A stretch of 64,000 bases of DNA. Source: Desulfosporosinus sp. (GTDB lineage Bacteria > Bacillota > Desulfitobacteriia > Desulfitobacteriales > Desulfitobacteriaceae). The notes beneath the pieces were generated by a model. The model was not told where the DNA came from. It ran no database searches and was given only the letters and a program-made list of their open reading frames with translations. The translations under genes were made by a program, and so were the position numbers. Within the stretch, counting starts at the first letter, position 1. Each line of letters starts with the position of its first letter. Location of the stretch: NCBI GenBank assembly GCA_049302315.1, contig JBAQLX010000677.1, positions 11,425 through 75,424 of the forward strand, given 5' to 3'. Positions 9,766 to 52,026 of the stretch are shown here, one piece after another.

Positions 9766-10041
9766 TTATTTCGTACATGTTTTATCCTCCAGATGCTTCG
9801 CTCTATTCAACGCCTTGCAGGACCTGTTAAATAAATCCCGGCCACGATCATTGATCGGCAACGTCCAGCAAATCTCGTTAAGGTCAACCCATTCTTCCAG
9901 TACTTGATATAGATCATTAGTAATCCGTATGGAACCCTTCTTAGGGACAAGTCTCTTGCGCATTATTATGACTCCGATAATGACTCCGATAATGACCCCA
10001 ACCATTACGCCAATAGCTAGACCGCCATAGAATGTCATCAA
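9766..10041 (-). CDS. small membrane protein
   Basis: N-terminal TM segment with a (VIIG)x3 repeat. Confidence 0.5.
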   Translation of the reverse strand: MMTFYGGLAIGVMVGVIIGVIIGVIIMRKRLVPKKGSIRITNDLYQVLEEWVDLNEICWTLPINDRGRDLFNRSCKALNRAKHLEDKTCTK

Positions 10042-21445: not shown

Positions 21446-24400
21446 TTATGAGACTAGGCTCCGTATTTCTTCCCATGATTTCTTTGGGCTGACCCAAATA
21501 TCGTTTGAACTCATTTCCCAAGCGTTTTTCGATGCAACCAGAAGAGCATGTAAAACGACTTCCGCCATGGCTCTTCCCGCTGGAGGTGGTACCATATTCC
21601 CTATGGCCTCACGCCATCTTTGGTCTGAGTTCCCTGAGAGTATGAGAGGTTTGCCGTTTATGATCACTGGTAATCCCTGAAGTGCTGCCAGCTCCAACGT
21701 GGTCAAGGGTCTGTGCCATGTACCGTCCAAAGAGATAATCACGGGAGGTGGATCTAAGGTTTCGTTGTCTTTCGGGATGCGTGGATCCGAAACAGCAGCT
21801 ACGGCGTTCGAACTGGTGACGCTTGCCGAACCAGTGACTGTTGATATCGGTTCATCCCAATTCGCTACGCCATATAGATTTGGACGGGAATTACAGGTGA
21901 TTCGCGGGTCTGCTATTGCTGAAGCTCCAGCATGTATATCTCCAGCGCCTATCACTGTTTTCCCGGGTTCATTCCAACTCTGTACCCCCATCATCCCGGA
22001 ACGTGGTTTGCATCCGAGCCGTGGATCTGCGACCGATTGCGCGCCCGATTGAATGTCAGGTGTTCCGGTCACAGTTGATGCTGGCTCTTCCCAATCTAGG
22101 ACTTTTCGCTTATTGGAATATCCTCCGCCCACTCTCGGATCTGCTACGCAAATTGCCCCATTATTAGGTCGATGGGCTCCCGTGACTGTGCTCGCTTCCT
22201 TGTCCCATTTATTTACTTGATAGATTGCCGTATGGGTGCTGTCCTTAAATCCTGTTCTTGGGTCAGCTATCGCAATGGCCCCACTACCAAACCTCGTCCC
22301 TGTCACGCATGGCGCAGGTTCATCAAACTTTACTACTCGATATACGCCCGGGTGTCTGCTTTTTCTTTCGGTCAATCTGGGATCCGCTATACACGTTGCA
22401 CCGTTCGAAGTTCCCACTTTTGCGCTCCCAGTTATTGTTGTGCTTGGTTCATTAAACTTCTGAACCCGGTAAACTCCTTCTCTAGGTTTATGTCCTAATC
22501 TTGGGTCTGCGATATTAGTCGCATTTGAACCATTTACCTTTGCGTTCGCGGTGACTGTATTACTGGGCTTGTCCCAGTCCTGAATTCCAAAAGATCCACC
22601 ACCTCGAGGTATATGCTCCAATCGATATTCTTCGGGAGCAATCTTCTCCAAGTCTCGCCAATCTCCACCAGCTGGGATTAACGCCAACCTTACCCACGTT
22701 TTCCACTGAAGCTTCGGTAGCCTGTGTAATGGTCCCATTTTTTCGGTACCCGGAAGAGGTAATGGCCCAATAACCTCGCCGATGGATTTCACCCTTTGCT
22801 TTGTTGGCTCATAGATAAACGATTCCATTTTGGCCTTGTTTCTTGCGATAAGTAGGTATCTTTTCCGATGCTGTGCCAGACCTCCGATCTCCCCGCAATC
22901 ATGGTCCCTGTCGTCAACGACATATCCATAACTTTGAAGCATACCCTTGATTGTATTGAGGAGCTTTTGCCCCCTAGTTCGTATGCGTGGCACATTCTCA
23001 AGAAGAATCACTGAGGGTAAGTCATCCCTGAATGCCTCAAGTACTAGGAATATGCCCCGTGTTACTAATCTATTAAGTGCTTGGTATTTATCTGTCGCCG
23101 CCGATGCTTGGGGCAAGAGTCCACTGAAGCCTTTACAGTTGTGAGTTGCTATCATCCATGTACAGAAAGTATTATCTTCATCAACTTCGAGATTCCAAAC
23201 TCGTTCTATCTCTGACCTTTTTGTTATCTTTCTCACCCTGACCCAGATAGCACCATCAATAATTTCAAAAATAGTTCTCTTTTTAGGGTCCATGCGAACA
23301 GTTAATTCCCAGCGGGGTTTAGTCTGTACTTTTCTACCTTCTATCACTTGCTCACCACCTGGCCAACATTTGTTTATCCCTCCATATTGACCTGTTCGTA
23401 ATAATAATCTTTGTAAATTTCGGAGTAGTGGCAATGAGACCGATGCGATTTTCCATCTAGCTTGAAGTTCATTCTTGGCCATTCTGCGTCCTTGTTCGCT
23501 TCCATCAGTAGCTCGATACCCATCAATTAGAGCAACTAATAACGGTTTTTCTAGGTTCATAAGCCTTACGGGAATATCCTTGTTCTCTGCACCATCCCCG
23601 AAGGCTCCAACCAATTGCCATAGGTGTTTTGAATCAACTCTAATTTTGATATTACTTTTACCACCACTATTGTCTTCGTTTGAGTTTATCCCCAATTCTT
23701 TTAGTGATAACCGAACTTGATCGGCTAGAGGTCCATCTTTTGCTCCAACACAGAAACAAACCTCATATCGGTCGTGTCGCCGATATCCATCCCCAATATA
23801 GGCACCTAGTAGAAACCAAAGGTATTGACTTTCAGTAAATTCACTAAGATCTATAATTCTACTAACTTTAGCCACGTGACTTCGGTTATGGGTTCCTTCT
23901 TTTGTTACGAACTGAGGGTCTCCAAATGATTTTACAAATTCCTTAGCACATCCCTCAATTTCTGGCTCAATAGGAAACCCAATGCGGTCTCCGATTCGTA
24001 TGTCGTTTGCCTTAACAAACTCAGGTTCGCTTAGCGTTCGCCTTTTTTCGTTTGAGACTGGCCTAATTACTCTCCGTCGCCAAATTGGATGTTCCGCTGT
24101 AAATCTACGGGTATCCACAGTTCCATTTAGACGTATGCCGACCATATCCCCCTCATAGTTATGGGTACCTACTTTAAGCACTTGTCGATATCTTCCACGA
24201 TGCGTTAATACGAATTCACCTGCTCGTATTTCCTCAATTCTTTTCGGACCGTCAATAGTTAAAATCTCTTCACTTCCAGGTAAACATGGTGGCGAAAGGA
24301 ATATTACGTCTGGATACTCCCCTCCTGCAGCTGTCATGATGTCATCCGGGGTTACTTCTTTCCAGTTAGGAGAAGGTTCTTGACCATGGAATGCAATATA

Positions 24401-24604
24401 ATCACGTCTTTCAAATAGGTCCATACAGACCGCTTTGCCTCCGGTTATATACTCGTAGTCAGCACAGGCTTTCGGGTCCACATCGATACCCACTAACGTT
24501 CGAAACTTGCCTTGCAGGCCTTTCCATTCTCCGATAGCCTGCTGGAAGCCCAAGGAACCTCCGCCAATTCCGGCGAACAGGTGTAATATTTTGAATTCTT
24601 TCAA
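21446..24604 (-). CDS. DNA (cytosine-5)-methyltransferase, intein-interrupted, with 7 tandem repeat modules
   Basis: Motif I 'LFAGIGGG'; motif IV reconstituted as 'SPP|CKGFSG' across the intein; 'LLENVPR' (VI); 'QHRKRYLLIA' (VIII); 'GNMVPPP' (X). Confidence 0.9.
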   Translation of the reverse strand: MKEFKILHLFAGIGGGSLGFQQAIGEWKGLQGKFRTLVGIDVDPKACADYEYITGGKAVCMDLFERRDYIAFHGQEPSPNWKEVTPDDIMTAAGGEYPDVIFLSPPCLPGSEEILTIDGPKRIEEIRAGEFVLTHRGRYRQVLKVGTHNYEGDMVGIRLNGTVDTRRFTAEHPIWRRRVIRPVSNEKRRTLSEPEFVKANDIRIGDRIGFPIEPEIEGCAKEFVKSFGDPQFVTKEGTHNRSHVAKVSRIIDLSEFTESQYLWFLLGAYIGDGYRRHDRYEVCFCVGAKDGPLADQVRLSLKELGINSNEDNSGGKSNIKIRVDSKHLWQLVGAFGDGAENKDIPVRLMNLEKPLLVALIDGYRATDGSEQGRRMAKNELQARWKIASVSLPLLRNLQRLLLRTGQYGGINKCWPGGEQVIEGRKVQTKPRWELTVRMDPKKRTIFEIIDGAIWVRVRKITKRSEIERVWNLEVDEDNTFCTWMIATHNCKGFSGLLPQASAATDKYQALNRLVTRGIFLVLEAFRDDLPSVILLENVPRIRTRGQKLLNTIKGMLQSYGYVVDDRDHDCGEIGGLAQHRKRYLLIARNKAKMESFIYEPTKQRVKSIGEVIGPLPLPGTEKMGPLHRLPKLQWKTWVRLALIPAGGDWRDLEKIAPEEYRLEHIPRGGGSFGIQDWDKPSNTVTANAKVNGSNATNIADPRLGHKPREGVYRVQKFNEPSTTITGSAKVGTSNGATCIADPRLTERKSRHPGVYRVVKFDEPAPCVTGTRFGSGAIAIADPRTGFKDSTHTAIYQVNKWDKEASTVTGAHRPNNGAICVADPRVGGGYSNKRKVLDWEEPASTVTGTPDIQSGAQSVADPRLGCKPRSGMMGVQSWNEPGKTVIGAGDIHAGASAIADPRITCNSRPNLYGVANWDEPISTVTGSASVTSSNAVAAVSDPRIPKDNETLDPPPVIISLDGTWHRPLTTLELAALQGLPVIINGKPLILSGNSDQRWREAIGNMVPPPAGRAMAEVVLHALLVASKNAWEMSSNDIWVSPKKSWEEIRSLVS
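21770..22603 (-). repeat. seven tandem ~38-42-aa protein repeats inside the methyltransferase (aa ~668-945)
   Basis: Each unit: hydrophobic-x-W/F-(D/N)-(E/K)-P/A-(S/A/G)-x-T-(V/I)-(T/I)-G ... (I/V)-(A/S)-D-P-R. Confidence 0.75.
23138..24286 (-). mobile_element. intein (383 aa) with LAGLIDADG homing endonuclease, inserted at the catalytic Cys of methyltransferase motif IV
   Basis: N-terminal 'CLPGSEEILTIDG', block B 'RFTAEHPIW', LAGLIDADG motifs 'LWFLLGAYIGDGY' and 'LVALIDGYRATDGS', C-terminal 'WMIATHN|C'; coordinates derived by codon counting (aa 107-489). Confidence 0.85.
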
Positions 24605-24625
24605 TGTTTACGCCCCCTTATGTCA

Positions 24626-25337: not shown

Positions 25338-26585
25338 TTAAAATAACAACGTCCCATACCGCAGGTCTTCGAGTACATTTTTTCTCGGTGTCAACCTATC
25401 GAATGCACAGGGCCGCATATCAAGTAGCCAGTCACACTCTAAGGCGTTTAGCTTTATGTCGTCACTGATAGCGCAGGCAAACGTTTTCATTTCTCTTGCC
25501 ATACCGTATTTCATCAATGCCGCCCATTTTTGCGGGTAATGTTTCCGCAGGATTTCGATGTTATTTCTCTCGTAAGCAAGCCCTGTGCCACAGGTATAAC
25601 ACCCGTTGCGCTCGAAGAGCTTGTTGCCGTTCTCGTCAGTCAGGTCATAAAGGGGTGCATAAGGCACGTTGAATTTGTGTATATAATCCCAAACATCATT
25701 ATCTGACCAGATTGACAGCGGGTTAGAGTAAAGATAGCCATCAGCAGTTGTGTAAAGAAATCCGTAGTCGAGAAACGTAAATGTCCGACGCCTTGATTCA
25801 CTTGCCATCAAACCGCGAAAGAGGGTAGCGCAGCCAAGCTTTTTTTGAAGCTTTTGCGAAGGCTGCTCCTTAATAAAATTGCAGCAACTGTGCGATATTC
25901 GCAGGTCAGGGAATTTTCGCAGGATAGAGTAATATTTGTCGTTGCCCTTCGATTGCTCCGGGCTATATTTCAAAAACACATTAATGTTGATTCTCGGCGC
26001 GTCAAGCTTCGTAGCGTCTTTACCCAAGATAGGAAAGCCGTATTGCTCCGCGATAAACCAAAAGCTGACGGGTATTCCCGCTTCCCAAACCAATTTACGG
26101 CGGCGGAAATCTTCCCACATTTCGGGCGTGACCGCTAAGTTAAGCTTGTCCGTTGAGAGCAAACGCCCCTTTTTGTTTAGGTACTTTTGAGCATCGCCCC
26201 TTGCCTCAATCAGTGCCCAAACCTCCTTCTGGGCTTCATACTTCAGGCGCGGGACCTTTAATCGTTCGAGTTTTGTCTCATAGAAATTGTCGCCGCCCCA
26301 TTCCCTGCCGAGGTTGCGGGCGAATTTGAGGCTTTCGGGATACTCAACACCCGTATTGCCAAAAATCACAATCATTTTTGATGCTTCATCAGGACAGGTT
26401 TCGCGAATTAAATGCCAAAGCGCAGTTGAGTCTTTGCCGCCGGAAAAGGCAAGGGCAATCTTGTTGCCTCGTTTGAATGTTTCGCGGATTATCTCTTTGG
26501 CCTTCTCAATTTTTTTATCGAGTTCCCATGATTGCATTTCCTGCAACTCTGAGTATTTAAAGATGCTTTGCCTTTTCTTGCTCAT
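25338..26585 (-). CDS. PAPS-reductase-family (PP-loop) protein
   Basis: PP-loop 'ALAFSGGKDSTALWHL'; C-terminal Cys residues 'NGCYTCGTG'. Confidence 0.8.
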   Translation of the reverse strand: MSKKRQSIFKYSELQEMQSWELDKKIEKAKEIIRETFKRGNKIALAFSGGKDSTALWHLIRETCPDEASKMIVIFGNTGVEYPESLKFARNLGREWGGDNFYETKLERLKVPRLKYEAQKEVWALIEARGDAQKYLNKKGRLLSTDKLNLAVTPEMWEDFRRRKLVWEAGIPVSFWFIAEQYGFPILGKDATKLDAPRININVFLKYSPEQSKGNDKYYSILRKFPDLRISHSCCNFIKEQPSQKLQKKLGCATLFRGLMASESRRRTFTFLDYGFLYTTADGYLYSNPLSIWSDNDVWDYIHKFNVPYAPLYDLTDENGNKLFERNGCYTCGTGLAYERNNIEILRKHYPQKWAALMKYGMAREMKTFACAISDDIKLNALECDWLLDMRPCAFDRLTPRKNVLEDLRYGTLLF

Positions 26586-28535: not shown

Positions 28536-29438
28536 TTAGTGGGCCGGTTGTGCGTTCGAGGATTGATCGGAGCATTTGGGTTGACCTCCTTTTAAGACTT
28601 TAGACATTTTTGACGCAACAATCATCGGTCTTAGCCATTCCCTCTGGTACCCTGCCCAAGTTTCATCCGTGTTCCCATTCTTATCCTTATAAAGCATTGC
28701 ATAGGGCATGAACCCGGCCCTTATTGTGTCATTAAGCCTTTTCTCGGCCTTGTCAAATGTGTCTCCCTTATAGCCGATCAGCACATAGCAACATGCAGTA
28801 TGGCTTGACACCTTGAACCCTACATCTTTAAGCAATCGTCCCGCATAGACTAAGGGTTCGTAATCATCTGGCGTATCATAGGCAAAATACATTCGCTTAG
28901 TTTTAGCTTCATATAACTTCTCGGCGTGCCAAGGTTTTAATATCTTCGCCTCAAGTCCTCCGGTAAACTCCGGTCTTTCTTTTTGCCGCTTTAACATGCT
29001 AAAAACTTCTTTAATGTGATCGTCTGAGCAAGCAAGGAAATTATCATCGAGAATATTCCAACCGTCTTTAATCTTATATTCCCTCAATTTGCCTTCGCGT
29101 TTTGGGACCATACAGAACCAGCAGTTATTCGGGCATCCGCGACTTGAAATAGTGTAGCCTTCCTTGATGTATCTGCCAGGAATAAACTCTTCACTGCGCT
29201 CATTGAACGCTGGCCCCCCCATCTTTACCGGAACACCTACGCCCCTCCATTGCATTTCAAGCCATTCAGCACGCTTCATATCATAGGTAAAAGCAACCGA
29301 TATATGGACTTCGTCTACCTCCGGCATAAACATTGGTGGGCAATCGGTGAATACAAGATCATCTGCTGGGGTAGCCTTAGTTATTCTTGGAAAAACCCTT
29401 GCTATTTTTACGACGTTTCGCCTCCCCTTCTGCCTCAT
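28536..29438 (-). CDS. radical SAM protein (paralog 2)
   Basis: 'SSRGCPNNCWFCMVPKREGKL', 'YVLIGY', 'MPY' shared with 11656..12537; start moved to ATG 29438 (GAGGTGAGGGGG upstream). Confidence 0.7.
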   Translation of the reverse strand: MRQKGRRNVVKIARVFPRITKATPADDLVFTDCPPMFMPEVDEVHISVAFTYDMKRAEWLEMQWRGVGVPVKMGGPAFNERSEEFIPGRYIKEGYTISSRGCPNNCWFCMVPKREGKLREYKIKDGWNILDDNFLACSDDHIKEVFSMLKRQKERPEFTGGLEAKILKPWHAEKLYEAKTKRMYFAYDTPDDYEPLVYAGRLLKDVGFKVSSHTACCYVLIGYKGDTFDKAEKRLNDTIRAGFMPYAMLYKDKNGNTDETWAGYQREWLRPMIVASKMSKVLKGGQPKCSDQSSNAQPAH

Positions 29439-29715
29439 CCCCCTCACCTCGCGAACCACCACACAACCCCTATAAGTGCAACAAGGTCTAACCCGATTAC
29501 AGCTAACCAAACCAGCTTATCTTTGGTCATCGTGCATCCCTCACTTAACCAACTTTTTAGCAATCTTGGGTCTTATCGTTCTCATACTTTAACTTTGTCG
29601 ATTCGCACTCAGGGCAGGAAAATAGTTCAACTTCCTCAAATTCATTTCCACAATTAAGGCATGTGTAAATATTAATCGCCTCCCTACTCTGCCAACTTCC
29701 TAGCAAGCGCGCGCC

Positions 29716-34479: not shown

Positions 34480-35664
34480 ATGGCAAAGCAGCGTAACCCC
34501 AACGGGATAGGAAGCTACAAGTTGCGGAAAGACGGACGCATCCAATGGACACAAAAGAAGGATGGAAAGCCCAGGGTTCTTTATGGCAAAACATTGGGTG
34601 AATTGCAGGCTAAAGTTAAAAAGGTTTCTGATCTGCCGGTGACATCGACTAAACTAACGGTTTCCGATTGGTTCGAGAAATGGCTAGATATTTATGTCAA
34701 ACAACTTAAAAAGAAAGCCACCTACGACCAATACAAGACCTTATATGAGCAACATATAAAGCCGATTATTGGACATAGAAGGCTATCAGGAGTAAAACCG
34801 CTTGATATACAGACGGTGATTGCCAAGATGAACGACAAGAAAAGGGCATCAAAGACCATGAAGCATGTTAAAAGCATTATGAATATTGCTTTTAACAAAG
34901 CTCTTGATGATAAACTTATATCTTCAACCCCTGTGGTTAAGATCGAAATTCCGGTCAAGCAGGCCAAGACAAGAAAAGTGCTGACCGTCGAGGATTTAAT
35001 TAAGCTCTATAAAGCCATGGAGCGCAGTCGCTGGATTTGGTCAATTAGATTTCTTTTGGTCACTGGCCTTCGTCGCGGTGAAATGCTGGCATTGAAATGG
35101 ACTGACATTGATACCGAAAATAAGCGCATAACTATTGATGAATCAAACAGTAGTAGTGGTATTGGTGATACAAAGTCCGCAAAAGTTCATTATGTCCCCT
35201 TATCGGACAAGGCACTGGGTTATCTCGACGGGCAGAAGTTAATGCTGGAAAAAGAAGCTAACCCGATACTACACAACGAAAAATTAAAAAAGACCGCCCT
35301 TGTTTTTCCAAGCAAGAACGGTACTATGATTAGGCCAGATTCCTATTATACCATGTTAAGAAGGTTTGCTATAAAGGCAGAAATAAAAGCAAGTGCTCAC
35401 TGCATCAGACACACATTTGTCTATTTAAACAGGGAGGCAATGTCCCTGAAGGAATTGCAAGCTATATTAGGTCACGATGAAAGCACGACTACTCTTGATC
35501 TTTATGGTGACATCCTTGAAGAGACCATGACTAAAACGGCGAGCAAAATAGATGACGTATTCGATAAGGTGGATAAGGAAATAAAAAGAATAGAAGAAGA
35601 AAAAGCAGAGAAGGAAAATATGCCAATGGGTAAGTTAATTGAGTTCAAAAGAAAGAGCAGTTAA
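34480..35664 (+). CDS. int: tyrosine integrase
   Basis: SAM-like N-domain; catalytic residues in 'TGLRRGEMLAL', 'HCIRHTF', 'LGHDESTTTLDLY'. Confidence 0.9.
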   Translation: MAKQRNPNGIGSYKLRKDGRIQWTQKKDGKPRVLYGKTLGELQAKVKKVSDLPVTSTKLTVSDWFEKWLDIYVKQLKKKATYDQYKTLYEQHIKPIIGHRRLSGVKPLDIQTVIAKMNDKKRASKTMKHVKSIMNIAFNKALDDKLISSTPVVKIEIPVKQAKTRKVLTVEDLIKLYKAMERSRWIWSIRFLLVTGLRRGEMLALKWTDIDTENKRITIDESNSSSGIGDTKSAKVHYVPLSDKALGYLDGQKLMLEKEANPILHNEKLKKTALVFPSKNGTMIRPDSYYTMLRRFAIKAEIKASAHCIRHTFVYLNREAMSLKELQAILGHDESTTTLDLYGDILEETMTKTASKIDDVFDKVDKEIKRIEEEKAEKENMPMGKLIEFKRKSS

Positions 35665-36663: not shown

Positions 36664-36876
36664 ATCACCACGGAAAAGAAAGAGACATTTTGGGCAGATG
36701 AACCGCTCACAGCAAAGCTCGCTACTATCCCGCGAAACGAAAAAAGCACCATCATTAGAATGGCACTCAGGCAGTGGTTCGGGATCTCGGGCAACCAATC
36801 TCTGGCACCAATAACTCAGGACGCAGCGCAGCTCATAGCACGGGAGCTGATTAAGGCTGGAAGGAGGCAGCAATGA
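36664..36876 (+). CDS. possible ribbon-helix-helix-like small protein lacking a canonical start codon
   Basis: Open frame from 36580; AAGGAGG at 36655-36661; 'KKETFWADEPLTAKLATIPRNEKSTIIRMALRQWFG'; stop overlaps the FtsK-like ATG (ATGA). No ATG/GTG/TTG near the RBS (only ATC 36664 / ACG 36670). Confidence 0.3.
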   Translation: MTTEKKETFWADEPLTAKLATIPRNEKSTIIRMALRQWFGISGNQSLAPITQDAAQLIARELIKAGRRQQ

Positions 36877-38249
36877 ACGAAGTAAAACCTGACATCATAG
36901 GCCTATTCTCGTCCACACTAGTCAAAGCCGGCCGCCTTGCCCTCCGGCACATCGGCAGGCAAAGTGACTCACATCCCGGGCGAATAATGCTCTCCTGGAA
37001 GCGGAATGACGTCTGTGTTGAGACGAAGGAACGCGGCAAGGATAATACATCAAAGGAGTACCCGCAGCTCGTCAGTAAGGGCTGGAACGGGCATAATCGA
37101 GTATTTAAGTACCGCATCCCAACCGGTCTAAAACACGACAAACTTATTAAGTCCATCAACGACATTGAATTTGATTTAAAGTCTGAAGTGCTGTTCAAGC
37201 TGCTGGAAAATGACAAAAAAGCTCACTTCTCCTTGACCGTCCTCTCGGGTCACCTTAAAGACCTTATCACGTACACGGACGAAGCGAATCATCTCAAAGA
37301 CAAAGGGTTATGGATACCGTTAGGATGGTCAAGGCGAGGATTGGAGCAATTAGACCTTACCTCCAATAACTCCCCTCACCTCATGATTGGCGGCGGGACA
37401 GGAGCAGGGAAATCCATTCTTGCCCGGTTAATCCTCACAACCCTGCACATCAAATACACCCGGGATGAGGTCAGGTTATGGCTGTGTGATCTCAAGCATG
37501 GCAACGACACCTCTATGCTGGGGGACGATCCTGTGCTGGTTGATAAGGTGATCGTAGGACCTGAAGCTGTGGCAAATACCATGGATGAGTTATCCGCAAT
37601 CATTGGGCAAAGGTATGAAATGTTCAAAACACACAAAGGATGCTCAGATATTAAGTCATTCAACAAGCTCTACCCAACGAAAAGAATGCCGCATATCATA
37701 TGTTTTGTTGACGAATTGACAAAGCTGGAAGGCAAGGAGTTTAGGGAGGCTCGGGAGAAAATGTCTAAGGTAACAGGCGAGGGTCGTGCATCCGGGGTGC
37801 ATATGATCATTAGTTGTCATCGGCCTACGGCTAACCTCGTTTCCGGCACTATGAAAAACAATATCCCTGCGGTCGTCGCGTTCCGGTGTAATCCGGTATC
37901 GGCTCGGGTGCTACTCGGAGAAGATGAATGGGAAAGCTCTATGATGATTGATAAGGACGTTGAGGGCCGGGCGTTATTCAAGTTTAAGGATGAAGTTTTG
38001 ATTCAAGTGCCGTACATTGATGACGAGATGGTAGGGAGTATCATGGCGGCCTATCAAAAGCCACAAAGGGCACAAGCGGAGTTAATAGACAAGATCATCA
38101 AGGCGACAAAAGAGCCTATAGATGAGGGGATAATAAAAAAGAGTAGGAATAGGCAGTTATGCGAACGACCAACCGAAGAAACCCGCTCGCAGCGCGCGAA
38201 ATTACGCCTGGTACAACCACTGGGCACGAAGGGTATCGCGAAGGAGTGA
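36873..38249 (+). CDS. FtsK/SpoIIIE-family DNA translocase
   Basis: Walker A 'GGGTGAGKS', Walker B 'ICFVDELTKL', 'ASGVHMIISCHRP'. Confidence 0.85.
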   Translation: MNEVKPDIIGLFSSTLVKAGRLALRHIGRQSDSHPGRIMLSWKRNDVCVETKERGKDNTSKEYPQLVSKGWNGHNRVFKYRIPTGLKHDKLIKSINDIEFDLKSEVLFKLLENDKKAHFSLTVLSGHLKDLITYTDEANHLKDKGLWIPLGWSRRGLEQLDLTSNNSPHLMIGGGTGAGKSILARLILTTLHIKYTRDEVRLWLCDLKHGNDTSMLGDDPVLVDKVIVGPEAVANTMDELSAIIGQRYEMFKTHKGCSDIKSFNKLYPTKRMPHIICFVDELTKLEGKEFREAREKMSKVTGEGRASGVHMIISCHRPTANLVSGTMKNNIPAVVAFRCNPVSARVLLGEDEWESSMMIDKDVEGRALFKFKDEVLIQVPYIDDEMVGSIMAAYQKPQRAQAELIDKIIKATKEPIDEGIIKKSRNRQLCERPTEETRSQRAKLRLVQPLGTKGIAKE

Positions 38250-43665: not shown

Positions 43666-45078
43666 ATGAACCTGAAGACTGAGCTTATGCCCCATCAATT
43701 CCCTGCTGTTGAAAAATCAATCAGGTCTACTATTTTCGCGCTTTTTATGTCGATGGGAACCGGCAAGACAAGGACCACATTCGAGCTTGTTTACCGGCGC
43801 CTATCTAAGATTGACAAGGTAGTTTATTTCTGCCCTGTTTCGCTCAAGGAAACAGTCCGTCGGGAAATCTTGAAGCACACCGACTGTGAAGACTCCGACA
43901 TATACGTTTTCGGAGATAAAACCAGCGAACGCAACATTCCTCGCGCCCTCTGGTATATCATCGGCATCGAATCGATGAGCAGCAGCACGCGCATGGTCCT
44001 TGCTACAAACAAGCTCATCGCGGCCAAAACGTTTGTCATCCTTGACGAATCAAGTTATATCAAAGGTCACGACTCAAAACGTACGACACGCATCACGGCC
44101 ATGAGTGCGCGTTCAAGGTATCGCTTAATCTTAACGGGCACTCCACTCTCTCAAGGTGTTGTGGACCTGTACGCGCAAATGAGGTTTTTGTCGCCAAAGA
44201 TCCTTGGATATAACTCATTCTATTCCTTCGCCGCCAATCACCTTGAATACTCAGAGAAGTTCCCCGGTCGAATCGTGCGCAGCCATAATACCAAGTACCT
44301 AGCCGCCAAAACTAAGCCCTACGTCTATCAGATCACCAAGGAAGAATGCCTAGATCTACCCAAGAAGCTCTACGAGACGCGCTATTTTCACATGACAGAC
44401 GAGCAGGCGCATGAGTACCATCTTGCCAAAGAACAATTCCTCGAAGAGTTGGAACGCGATGACTTCAATTCGACATCCATTTTTCGTATGTTTACGGCAT
44501 TACAAGAGATTGTTTGTGGATTCTGGAATTATCGTACAAGAAAAGGATTCAAGCTATTCGAGTTTCGGCACCATCGGATAGAAACTTTTATGGATGTGGT
44601 AGCGGATATTCCTAATGACAAGAAAATTATTGTTTGGGCAAAATTTCAATATGATATACAAGGTATAGTCAGAGAACTAACAGATAAATATGGCGCGGAT
44701 TCTGTCGCGCAATTTCATGGGGAAATTAAGGAGAGAGATAGACCAAGGCAAGTAGCACTTTTCCGTGAGCAAGCTCGTTTCTTTGTCTCAACTCCAAGTT
44801 GTGGCGGCCATGGCTTAACCCTCAACGAGTCCCACTTTGTGATATTTTACAACAACGGATTTAAGTACAGCGAACGCTTACAGGCCGAAGACCGCGATCA
44901 TCGTATTGGACAAGAGCATGACGTAACCTACATCGACATCCACTGCTCGTGCAGTATCGACGATCGGATATCGAAAGCCTTAGCTACCAAGGAGGACGCG
45001 GCAACATCATTTCGCGAGGAAGTCGAAAAAACTCAGGGGGATAAAAACAGACTTAGGGAGTTGATAAAAAACCTATGA
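43666..45078 (+). CDS. SNF2-family helicase/translocase
   Basis: 'MGTGKTRT', 'ILDESSYIKG', 'LILTGTPLSQG', 'GGHGLTLNESHFVIFYN', 'QAEDRDHRIGQ'. Confidence 0.85.
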   Translation: MNLKTELMPHQFPAVEKSIRSTIFALFMSMGTGKTRTTFELVYRRLSKIDKVVYFCPVSLKETVRREILKHTDCEDSDIYVFGDKTSERNIPRALWYIIGIESMSSSTRMVLATNKLIAAKTFVILDESSYIKGHDSKRTTRITAMSARSRYRLILTGTPLSQGVVDLYAQMRFLSPKILGYNSFYSFAANHLEYSEKFPGRIVRSHNTKYLAAKTKPYVYQITKEECLDLPKKLYETRYFHMTDEQAHEYHLAKEQFLEELERDDFNSTSIFRMFTALQEIVCGFWNYRTRKGFKLFEFRHHRIETFMDVVADIPNDKKIIVWAKFQYDIQGIVRELTDKYGADSVAQFHGEIKERDRPRQVALFREQARFFVSTPSCGGHGLTLNESHFVIFYNNGFKYSERLQAEDRDHRIGQEHDVTYIDIHCSCSIDDRISKALATKEDAATSFREEVEKTQGDKNRLRELIKNL

Positions 45079-46370
45079 GCGGCAAAACATATCTCAAGCA
45101 AAACGTCTATGACGCTGCTAATGAACGAATAAAACTCGTTTTCGATGAATTTGAGAAAATCTGTATTTCGTTCTCTGCCGGCAAGGACAGCGGCGTTGTC
45201 CTGAATCTCGTACTAGATTACATGCGTAAAAACGGAATCACTAAAAAGATTGGCGTCCTACTCATCGATTTAGAGGGTCAGTATCAAGAGACTATCCAAC
45301 ACGCGCAAACTATGTACGGGGAAAATTCTGATCTCATTATTCCCTATTGGGTATGTCTACCATTAAACTTACGTAACGCAGTTTCGGTTTATCAGCCGTT
45401 CTGGTGCTGCTGGGAGCCAGGTCTTGAAGATAAATGGATTAGGCCATTTCCTGACTTCCCCGCCATCACTGATCAGGATTATTTCCCATTCTACCGCTAC
45501 CGCATGGAATTTGAAGAATTTGTTCCCGAATTTAGCAAGTGGTTTTCTGAGGGCAAAAAGACGGCGTGTCTAGTGGGGATTAGGTCTAACGAAAGCCTTA
45601 ATCGGTACAGGACCATAGTGAGCGATAGTAAAGAATCTTACAAGGGCAAGGGCTGGACCACTAAAATGTCCGATAATGTTTATAATGCTTACCCAATATA
45701 TGATTGGACCACAGAGGATATCTGGGCCGCAAATGGCAAAAACGGATGGCATTACAACAAGCTCTATGATCTATTTTACAAAGCTGGAATTGGTATCCAT
45801 GACATGCGGATCTGCCAACCCTATGGAGATGACCAGAGAATCAGCCTCGACATGTTCCGCGTCATTGAACCTGAAACGTGGGCAAAAGTTGTTAATCGTG
45901 TTTCGGGTGCAAACTTCGGGAATATTTATTGTGGCACCAAGGCGATCGGATACCGAAAGATCGATCTACCGGAAGGGCACACTTGGAAAAGCTATACTAA
46001 GCTCTTGCTATCTTCGCTTCCACCAGAGACCAGGGAAAACTACACTAGCCGTTTTATCAGGTTTATGAGATATTGGCACAAAAACGGTTGCGGATTACCT
46101 GATGACTATCTCGATCAATTACCCGCATCAGCTGTAATTACAGAGGATATTACGAATCGAGGTAAAAAGAATAAGAAGATCGTCAAGTACAAAAAGATTG
46201 AGGACAGCGTTGAGGGTAATATCGAAAGTAAAAAGTTCGCTCCGACTTGGCGAAGGATGGCTATGTGTATCTTGAAGAATGATCACCTATGTAAGGGTTT
46301 GTCGTTTGCTCAGACTAAACATCAAGCAGAGCGCCAACGTCAACTTATCGAGAAATACCGAAACCTATAA
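45075..46370 (+). CDS. IbrA-like PAPS-reductase-family protein (PP-loop N-domain + DUF3440-type C-region)
   Basis: 'NVYDAANERIKLVFDEFEKICISFSAGKDSGVVLNL', 'LIDLEGQY', 'YWVCLPLNLRNAVS..QPFWCCWEP'. Confidence 0.8.
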   Translation: MSGKTYLKQNVYDAANERIKLVFDEFEKICISFSAGKDSGVVLNLVLDYMRKNGITKKIGVLLIDLEGQYQETIQHAQTMYGENSDLIIPYWVCLPLNLRNAVSVYQPFWCCWEPGLEDKWIRPFPDFPAITDQDYFPFYRYRMEFEEFVPEFSKWFSEGKKTACLVGIRSNESLNRYRTIVSDSKESYKGKGWTTKMSDNVYNAYPIYDWTTEDIWAANGKNGWHYNKLYDLFYKAGIGIHDMRICQPYGDDQRISLDMFRVIEPETWAKVVNRVSGANFGNIYCGTKAIGYRKIDLPEGHTWKSYTKLLLSSLPPETRENYTSRFIRFMRYWHKNGCGLPDDYLDQLPASAVITEDITNRGKKNKKIVKYKKIEDSVEGNIESKKFAPTWRRMAMCILKNDHLCKGLSFAQTKHQAERQRQLIEKYRNL

Positions 46371-51122: not shown

Positions 51123-51198
51123 GCAGAAACACCGGAACGGCGTCTCTATGCCCATTGTAAGGCGTCGCTCCGGTAAAAACAAGAGGAGCGAAAAGAGA

Positions 51199-52026
51199 AT
51201 GAGATATATAGAAGAGTTTTTGACCGCCCGCAAGCTGGACGGCCTTGCTGTTGGGACCATCGACCAGTATGAACGTGAACTAAAAACGCTAGCCAGATAC
51301 TTGGACAAGCCCACCATCGAGGCCACAACTAATGACCTGAGAAACTACTTAATCCAATTCGCGCACCTCGCGCAGAGAACTACTAATCGTAAAATATCAA
51401 CCGCCAAGGCATTTTACACTTGGTTAGTGCAGGAAGAGTATATCGAACGTAATCCAACTAAGAAGATCAGAACGCCGAAGGATCCGGCCTCGCTCCCACG
51501 TAACCTAAACAAGGAGGATGTCGAGCTACTGCGCTGGTATCCTAAGTCACCTCGCAATCAAGCCATAATAGAGCTGTTGGTGTCCAGTGGGATGAGAGTT
51601 GGCGAGCTGTCGCGCCTGAATAGAAATGACTTAAACATGGCAAACAGGCAAATCCGAGTCGTGGGCAAGGGCAACAAAGAAAGGCTTGTGTTTTTCGGGC
51701 ACATCGCGAAGTTCTGCCTGACCAGCTACCTGAGCGAGAGGACCGATAATAACCCAGCTTTGTTTATAAACCGCTATGGGGAGCGCCTGCGGATCCGGAG
51801 CATCGAAGCGCAGCTCAAGGCCCATGCAAAGCAGGCTGGGATCACTAACAAGGTCACGCCGCATATGCTCCGGCACGCGTTCGCTTCGGGCCTGTACGAG
51901 CAGGGCGCAGATATTGATTTTATCGCTCGACTGCTGGGTCACGAATCGACGGATACAACGAGAAAATATACGCACATCAACAGCGTGGCGATGGCCAGAA
52001 TGTTCGATAAGTTTTTGGTTAGCTAA
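51199..52026 (+). CDS. XerC/XerD-like tyrosine recombinase
   Basis: Start moved to ATG 51199; 'SGMRVGELSRLN', 'HMLRHAFAS', 'LLGHESTDTTRKYTH' (R-H-R-H-Y set). Confidence 0.85.
   Translation: MRYIEEFLTARKLDGLAVGTIDQYERELKTLARYLDKPTIEATTNDLRNYLIQFAHLAQRTTNRKISTAKAFYTWLVQEEYIERNPTKKIRTPKDPASLPRNLNKEDVELLRWYPKSPRNQAIIELLVSSGMRVGELSRLNRNDLNMANRQIRVVGKGNKERLVFFGHIAKFCLTSYLSERTDNNPALFINRYGERLRIRSIEAQLKAHAKQAGITNKVTPHMLRHAFASGLYEQGADIDFIARLLGHESTDTTRKYTHINSVAMARMFDKFLVS

Follow-up and report, generated by a model that had tools for sequence, protein, structure and literature searches.

We analyzed a 64,000-nucleotide stretch of DNA from Desulfosporosinus sp. (contig JBAQLX010000677.1; "the window" refers to the whole of that stretch) and focused on one of its genes, a C5 DNA methyltransferase whose open reading frame (ORF) is split by an intein. 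The precursor ORF runs from 21446 to 24604 on the minus strand (1052 aa, TTG start, stop codon at 21446-21448), with a Shine-Dalgarno-like AAGGGGG, read directly from the sequence, spaced 8 nt from the TTG codon on its upstream side (24613 to 24619, minus strand). The insert takes up codons 107-489 of this single 1052-codon ORF, preceded by ...DVIFLSPP and followed by CKGFSGL..., and the minus strand of 23138-24286 translates to all 383 residues, from CLPGSEEILTIDG to WMIATHN, that had been quoted in an earlier reading of the letters alone (hereafter the original prediction), while the plus strand of the same interval holds stop codons throughout. The coordinates given there were exact, with the minus strand left unstated, and its expectation of a ~75-kDa spliced product plus a ~44-kDa intein agrees with the masses that we computed for the spliced enzyme (72.7 kDa) and the intein (43.9 kDa), the precursor being 116.6 kDa.

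Evaluating the host protein revealed C5 methyltransferase motifs I, IV, VI, VIII, IX, and X, all present and distributed over the two exteins. The N-extein (24287 to 24604, minus strand; 106 aa) carries motif I as FAGIGGG at 24557-24577 and ends in ...DVIFLSPP. The C-extein (21449 to 23137, minus strand; 563 aa) starts with CKGFSGL (23117 to 23137, minus strand), in which the +1 Cys is the catalytic Cys of motif IV (the PC motif, here PP/CKGFS, with a slash marking extein-intein junctions throughout), and continues on the same strand with motif VI (ENV, in ENVPRI; 22982-23005), motif VIII (QHRKR, in QHRKRY; 22844-22873), motif IX (RPLTTLELAALQGLP; 21668-21712), and motif X (GNMVPP; 21584-21601). 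The C-5 DNA methylase profile PF00145 matched the precursor in two stretches (8.2e-17; 62.1 bits), the second resuming at profile position 71 with the C-extein start, and deletion of the insert in silico turned these into one stretch that covers residues 4-216 and profile positions 1-171 (4.2e-21; 76.2 bits). A PDB sequence search found no solved relative of the spliced enzyme.

The insertion point was further resolved by homologues with and without the insert. Searching with the whole protein returned 118 proteins, about half of them 580-730 aa long and about half ~830-1400 aa long with LAGLIDADG or Hint domains. In a 15-sequence alignment (A1), the intein-free proteins P0004, P0007, and P0008, whose identity to the window exteins is 86-89%, have FLSPP/CKGFSGLLP uninterrupted, and all long alleles have CLP...ATHN precisely between PP and CKG. 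Pattern searches then gave an identical insertion position in ~54 long homologues and an intein-free state in ~55 short ones, and the empty site was also seen in the DNA of contigs L001, L005, L006, and L007 (for example ...TTCCTTTCGCCACCA/TGCAAAGGCTTCAGCGGA...). Those intein-free relatives that are named belong mostly to anaerobic Bacillota. Precise in-frame removal thus restores a conserved host sequence of which intein-free alleles exist, such that the alignment confirmed the proposed placement of a LAGLIDADG intein between the Pro and the Cys of motif IV (SPP/C...HN/CKGFS), and the suggested check, that intein-free homologues should restore this motif, came out as SPPCKGFS at the exact junction in ~55 homologues up to 89% identical.

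The intein itself (23138 to 24286, minus strand; a 383-aa class 1 element that includes a LAGLIDADG homing endonuclease domain) carries its splicing blocks on the same strand. Block A (CLPGSEEILTIDG; 24248 to 24286) opens with Cys1, the first splicing nucleophile, which stands in CLPGSEE and is present throughout the family. Block B (RRFTAEHPIW; 24080 to 24109) holds the TxxH motif as T63-A-E-H66, found in 54 of 54 family inteins, with TAEHP being intein residues 63-67. Block F (RVWNLEVDEDNTFC; 23162 to 23203) has an Asn where Asp is common in inteins (N365, 54 of 54), and block G (WMIATHN; 23138 to 23158) provides the penultimate His and the terminal Asn, with HN and the +1 Cys (...ATHN/C) present in 91 of 91 C5-methyltransferase copies. 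Invariance across all 54 family inteins extends to T63, H66, D166, D261, and N365, none of which was imposed by the pattern that selected these inteins; Cys1, H382, N383, and Cys+1 are universal in them as well, yet were required by that pattern. Pfam analysis of the precursor also detected LAGLIDADG_3 above its cutoff (1.6e-11). Every motif named in the original prediction is present (TAEHP, LLGAYIGDGY, LVALIDGYRATDGS, the terminal HN, and the Cys at +1), and its call for an alignment to intein blocks is answered by blocks A, B, F, and G bounding the insert and by a fold that matches solved inteins.

Two LAGLIDADG motifs, LWFLLGAYIGDGY (23783 to 23821, minus strand; it contains LLGAYIGDGY) and LLVALIDGYRATDGS (23498 to 23542, minus strand), provide two helices that each have a terminal acidic residue, namely the catalytic D166 (LLGAYIGD166G) and D261 (YRATD261G), both found in 54 of 54 inteins. 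AlphaFold2 modeled the intein with a predicted local distance difference test score (pLDDT) of 96.3 and a predicted template modeling score (pTM) of 0.92 from a 63-sequence alignment (A2), which superseded an unusable single-sequence run (pLDDT 33.9). On this model the insert is predicted to adopt the HINT fold, as the top Foldseek matches in the PDB were all inteins with homing endonucleases, the best being the TliVMA intein 7qsu (E 8.6e-20, TM 0.66/0.69) with PI-SceI, the PhoVMA intein, 2cw7, and PI-PfuI among the others. The middle domain is likewise predicted to have the alpha-beta-beta-alpha-beta-beta-alpha nuclease core, with matches to I-DmoI and I-Tsp061I at E 2.9e-7 to 1e-5 and target TM 0.56-0.63. 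The 51 full-length family inteins that were measured all have lengths of 353-421 aa, with no mini-intein among them.

These solved LAGLIDADG inteins, TliVMA (7qsu, 7qss), PI-SceI (1vde, 1ef0, 1lws), PhoVMA (7qst), 2cw7 (intein homing endonuclease II), and PI-PfuI (1dq3), share with the window model a two-domain plan in which a LAGLIDADG nuclease sits within the HINT splicing domain (Foldseek E 8.6e-20 to 2.3e-9, TM 0.54-0.69), along with Cys1, TxxH, the terminal HN, and the +1 Cys. They are, however, merely 12-19% identical to the window intein, reside in V-ATPase, DNA polymerase, or ribonucleotide reductase hosts, and lack its block F Asn in place of Asp and its -1 Pro.

Broadening the search to the intein alone, HMMER returned 4106 cluster representatives at E<=1e-3 (1225 at E<=1e-10), and our family classification covers the best 150 of these 4106 matches, 131 of which were new. 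In 59 of those 131 new proteins the C-extein begins with CxxxS right after HN, and ten of ten that were tested are PF00145 proteins in which the match resumes at profile position 71 or slightly earlier (67 once), which corresponds to the catalytic Cys. Among the matches listed, 91 of the 133 related intein copies with both junctions mapped sit at motif IV of C5 methyltransferases, and the PC site of these enzymes is the most frequent home of the intein family in that set. Other searches were less productive, in that a word-indexed homologue search with only the intein gave 6 proteins, a scan of viral_contigs with the single intein sequence gave one relative (L010), the corresponding scan of genome_contigs confirmed no relative, and none of 50,697 phage records matched the gene in a megablast search. 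We confirmed that the insert is real and that it represents a new case of an arrangement common in public sequence data. This is contrary to the original view of a methyltransferase as a less usual intein host, which fails given the 91 copies at the PC site and their presence in cultured phages as well; published work also describes inteins in phage DNA methylases (PMC5050341, PMC9957025) and lists C-5 methylases as hosts (10.1101/2025.01.02.630785).

Some intein relatives occupy other enzymes, at the third Cys of the radical-SAM CxxxCxxC motif (CxxxCxF/C...HN/C, with NCSF/C at the junction; P0109, P0177, P0180, P0203, and P0230) and at a thymidylate-synthase-like GP/C...HN/CYGFQW (P0138, P0226, and Aeromonas phage PS1 (H32)). 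These are alike in using a functional Cys as +1, but their host proteins differ, and the +1 Cys in the window is the nucleophile that attacks cytosine C6.

We next considered mobility, divergence, and selection. Presence and absence of the intein need at least 10 changes on a neighbor-joining tree of 106 exteins, and all other members that this tree places in the clade of the window allele are intein-free. Relative to the nearest intein-bearing allele (P0001; contigs L002, L003, and L010), DNA identity was 87.0% for the intein versus 80.8% for the N-extein and 77.5% for the C-extein, and synonymous divergence (dS) stood at 0.59 in the intein and at 1.1-2.8 in the exteins, the latter values being near saturation. 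The ratio of nonsynonymous to synonymous divergence (dN/dS) was 0.096 over the whole intein and 0.118 within the nuclease domain, with the exteins and intein spanning 0.02-0.10. Base composition also differed, with the intein at 41.3% GC (29.8% at third codon positions, GC3) versus 47.8-49.1% for the exteins (GC3 43-45%). The patchy spread, AT-richness, purifying selection, and lower divergence than the exteins are together the signature of homing, and they argue for an element that moves horizontally and has kept both its splicing and its nuclease function.

On L002 (~9930-9945) and L003, which derive from two separate JGI samples, the nearest intein-bearing allele has lost 1 nt from an A-run that lies 13 codons past the intein start, which splits it into ORFs of 139 aa and 867 aa. 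We rejected a natural split intein or a pseudogene here because the split comes down to this single nucleotide in an A-run and the same allele is unbroken (1029 aa) in the IMG/VR contig L010; the deletion is probably a homopolymer sequencing error.

Our interpretation, to which we assign a probability of about 0.85, is that the insert is a genuine class 1 LAGLIDADG intein that homed into the Pro/Cys codon boundary of the PC motif in a temperate-phage C5 DNA methyltransferase and is still splicing and homing. Translation would yield the 116.6-kDa precursor, whose catalytic loop is broken by the 383-residue insert and which would hence be methyltransferase-inactive. Cys1 would attack the Pro106-Cys107 bond, the N-extein would be transferred to Cys490 (+1), and Asn489 cyclization followed by an S-to-N shift would restore ...SPP-CKGFS..., releasing a 72.7-kDa enzyme with Cys490 as its nucleophile and a free 43.9-kDa endonuclease. 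Upon meeting an intein-free allele, this endonuclease would cut the conserved PC-motif DNA, and repair would copy the intein in. As the intein parts the Pro and the catalytic Cys of the PC motif, the precursor would be without an intact catalytic loop, and it follows from this anatomy, together with established knowledge of C5 methyltransferases and of inteins, that active methyltransferase would arise only via splicing and that the +1 Cys would double as splicing and methyltransferase nucleophile. Judging by its sequence, the intein is probably active, and we infer that splicing occurs constitutively with the nuclease still active.

Several observations weigh against this interpretation. The evidence base is sequence and predicted structure, from which splicing, nuclease, and methyltransferase activities are all deduced. 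Block F departs from the class 1 expectation of Asp at F:4 and His at F:13, since VWNLEVDEDNTF has Asn365 for the Asp (54 of 54) and Asn/Asp for the His. The Pfam matches to Hint_2 (21 bits) and Intein_splicing (14.4 bits) fall below their gathering scores, and a PDB sequence search with the insert gave chance matches only. The -1 residue is Pro, as it is in 83 of the 91 motif IV copies among the matches listed, and Pro at -1 is unfavorable for the first acyl shift in engineered intein fusions. With extein dS near saturation, the age contrast, which suggests an intein younger than the exteins at the window locus, is only qualitative. The block F Asp and His positions are frequent, yet not universal, in class 1 inteins, and we treated the block F difference as a family-wide variant that would represent a deviation and not an exclusion from class 1; because the -1 Pro and the block F Asn are both family-wide, they are family traits and not defects of the window copy.

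Among the alternatives, we regard as unlikely, though worth weighing first, that the intein splices but its endonuclease is inactive, such that the element is a vertically inherited passenger late in the homing cycle. The only close intein-bearing relatives (L002, L003, and L010) do share the methyltransferase lineage of the window and could share one old insertion, and no obvious co-conversion tract is seen in the exteins beside the junction. This would sit poorly, however, with the retention of the two acidic LAGLIDADG residues and of the Gly residues beside them in 54 of 54 inteins, with a nuclease-domain dN/dS of 0.118, with the lack of any mini-intein among the 51 full-length family inteins measured (353-421 aa), and with a patchily distributed intein that has diverged less than its exteins.

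Considerably less probable is that splicing is conditional, either slow or redox-gated, with a Cys1-Cys+1 disulfide or an unfavorable Pro-Cys scissile bond holding back the active methyltransferase until a certain time or redox state and thereby giving the phage a timer or switch for self-methylation. Were this true, phage self-protection would be coupled to the state of the infected cell. The anatomy does tie methylation strictly to splicing, a Cys1-Cys+1 disulfide is possible in principle, and there are reports of conditional splicing in other inteins that occupy functional sites (RadA, DnaB, SufB, and MoaA). Our data, though, do not separate conditional from constitutive splicing. Close relatives at 86-89% identity (P0004, P0007, and P0008) are intein-free, the patchy, horizontally moving pattern fits a selfish element and not a fixed regulator, and in unrelated C5 methyltransferases this site is home to diverse inteins, for which target conservation is the simpler explanation; intein-free close relatives, a selfish distribution, and diverse inteins at one site would all be seen because the target DNA is strongly conserved. 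The post-translational switch on self-protection in the original prediction is therefore unsupported, as nothing in the sequence or the comparisons favors conditional over constitutive splicing. A weaker, though more practical, version of the conditional reading would be that the intein family has adapted to efficient splicing with a -1 Pro, a junction that engineered inteins handle badly.

Least probable, and very much so, is that the insert is a dead, non-splicing remnant in what is effectively a methyltransferase pseudogene. In its favor, the nearest allele has the 1-nt deletion early in the intein (13 codons from its start) in two metagenome contigs (L002 and L003), and one could take the -1 Pro and the non-canonical block F for defects. 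Against it, the 1052 codons of the window ORF are unbroken, L010 has an intact copy of the nearest allele, with the deletion falling in an A-run where sequencing error is probable, exteins and intein are under strong purifying selection (dN/dS 0.02-0.10), and neither the -1 Pro nor the block F Asn is private to the window copy.

Returning to the host enzyme, seven tandem units of 35-41 aa, each with a terminal [AS]DPR, lie between motifs VIII and IX (21767 to 22588, minus strand; consensus ...V..W[DN]EP..TVTG......GA..[IV]ADPR) and are part of the enzyme, not of the intein. Their number differs among homologues, with L002 lacking one 123-nt unit and whole-unit indels seen in alignment A1. Multispecific phage methyltransferases are known to have multiple target-recognition modules, and these units may represent such modules.

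Inteins at the same point of motif IV were also present in cultured phages. In the P1-like phages RCS47 (FO818745) and vB_EcoM-Ro157c2YLVW, the C5 domain of Dmt is interrupted at the insertion point seen in the window (GGTP/CFTAGH...VVHN/CQAFSIAG) by a class 1 LAGLIDADG intein that is related to that of the window (tblastn E 2e-12, with 100% of the query covered) but only 24.5% identical to it and found in a proteobacterial host, where the enzyme is a classical PCQxFS methyltransferase fused to an adenine methylase. The interrupted Dmt is annotated only as DNA methyltransferase, and a literature search found no paper describing its intein. The reference P1 dmt is intein-free, with ~99% extein identity and 69% coverage in two pieces. 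For the dmt of OP279344.1 (Escherichia phage P1), coverage of the RCS47 gene is 87% in two pieces, between the full (100%) and empty (69%) values, and this copy may hold a partly deleted intein. Pseudomonas phage Lana gp71, a modification methylase (MK473373; L009 1725-4868), has an intein at the same site (FSPD/CFPAST...VVHN/CTHFSVAKGG) and, like the window enzyme, a long array of repeated target-recognition-like units (D.PL.T[IV]) analogous to the ADPR repeats described above; it differs in its methyltransferase subfamily, in its -1 Asp instead of Pro, and in an intein only 24.9% identical to that of the window.

In published work, LAGLIDADG inteins have been reported from actinobacteriophage DNA methylases, with a patchy, horizontally transferred distribution, in Kelley et al. 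2016 (PMC5050341) and in PMC9957025, and a 2025 survey preprint (10.1101/2025.01.02.630785) includes the C-5 methylase (IPR001525) among actinophage intein hosts. The characterized cases lie in N6/N4 (PF01555) enzymes, and the phages and hosts belong to another group than ours; by tblastn, the window intein matches these mycobacteriophage methylases at 27-28% identity. The main texts of the actinophage intein papers, including 10.1101/2025.01.02.630785, make no mention of a catalytic-Cys position for the C-5 insertion, and the main text of Novikova et al. 2016 makes none of methylases. Our literature search found no paper on the PC-motif intein of C5 methyltransferases as such, its matches being mostly papers that use intein purification tags, and C-5 methylases as intein hosts appeared within it only in that actinophage survey.

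The window also encodes a primase/helicase, helicases, an SbcCD-like nuclease, PAPS-reductase-like genes, a radical SAM protein, an anti-repressor, two integrases, an FtsK-like protein, a tape measure protein, a tail protein, and an endolysin, and from this gene content it is a temperate phage or prophage. The phage context that had been assumed at the outset is borne out by the tape measure protein, endolysin, integrases, and replication module. Contigs of the relatives carry Mu-like portal, Mu F-like, and capsid genes, and one relative lies on an IMG/VR viral contig. A scan for motifs in all six frames saw no second intein in the window.

Near the methyltransferase are PAPS-reductase-like and radical SAM/DUF5131-like genes (25338-26585, minus strand; 45075-46370, plus strand; 28536-29510, minus strand), two of them PAPS-reductase-like. 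In relatives, PAPS_reduct, an N6_N4 methylase, and the C5 methylase form one module, and the window is without the N6_N4 gene there. A neighboring gene on L010 (15-1244, plus strand) has a LAGLIDADG intein too (...HV/CLAKGSLVLT...EGCIVKN/CPLQFD...) and appears to be an N6/N4-type methylase, as suggested by a DPFAG motif in its C-extein and a PF01555 counterpart in other relatives, so that each of the two DNA methylases of the L010 phage would contain an intein. The two tyrosine-integrase genes of the window (34480-35664 and 51148-52026, both plus strand) are separated by ~16 kb, and an FtsK/SpoIIIE-like gene occupies 36873-38249; more than one integrated element, or a phage together with a satellite, may therefore be included in the window.

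For the window itself the importance of these findings is small and chiefly one of annotation, for which we suggest an intein-containing C5 DNA methyltransferase with a 669-aa enzyme and a free homing endonuclease as products. Beyond it, P1 versus RCS47 Dmt offers an easy experimental system for homing, as the window ORF does for splicing, and the family represents a natural set of inteins with a -1 Pro, as well as a clean case of one residue being both splicing and catalytic nucleophile. Though the literature searched holds almost nothing on it, the Pro-Cys boundary of C5 methyltransferase motif IV is a site that inteins use heavily in enzymes and phages of very different kinds, a relative of the model phage P1 among them.

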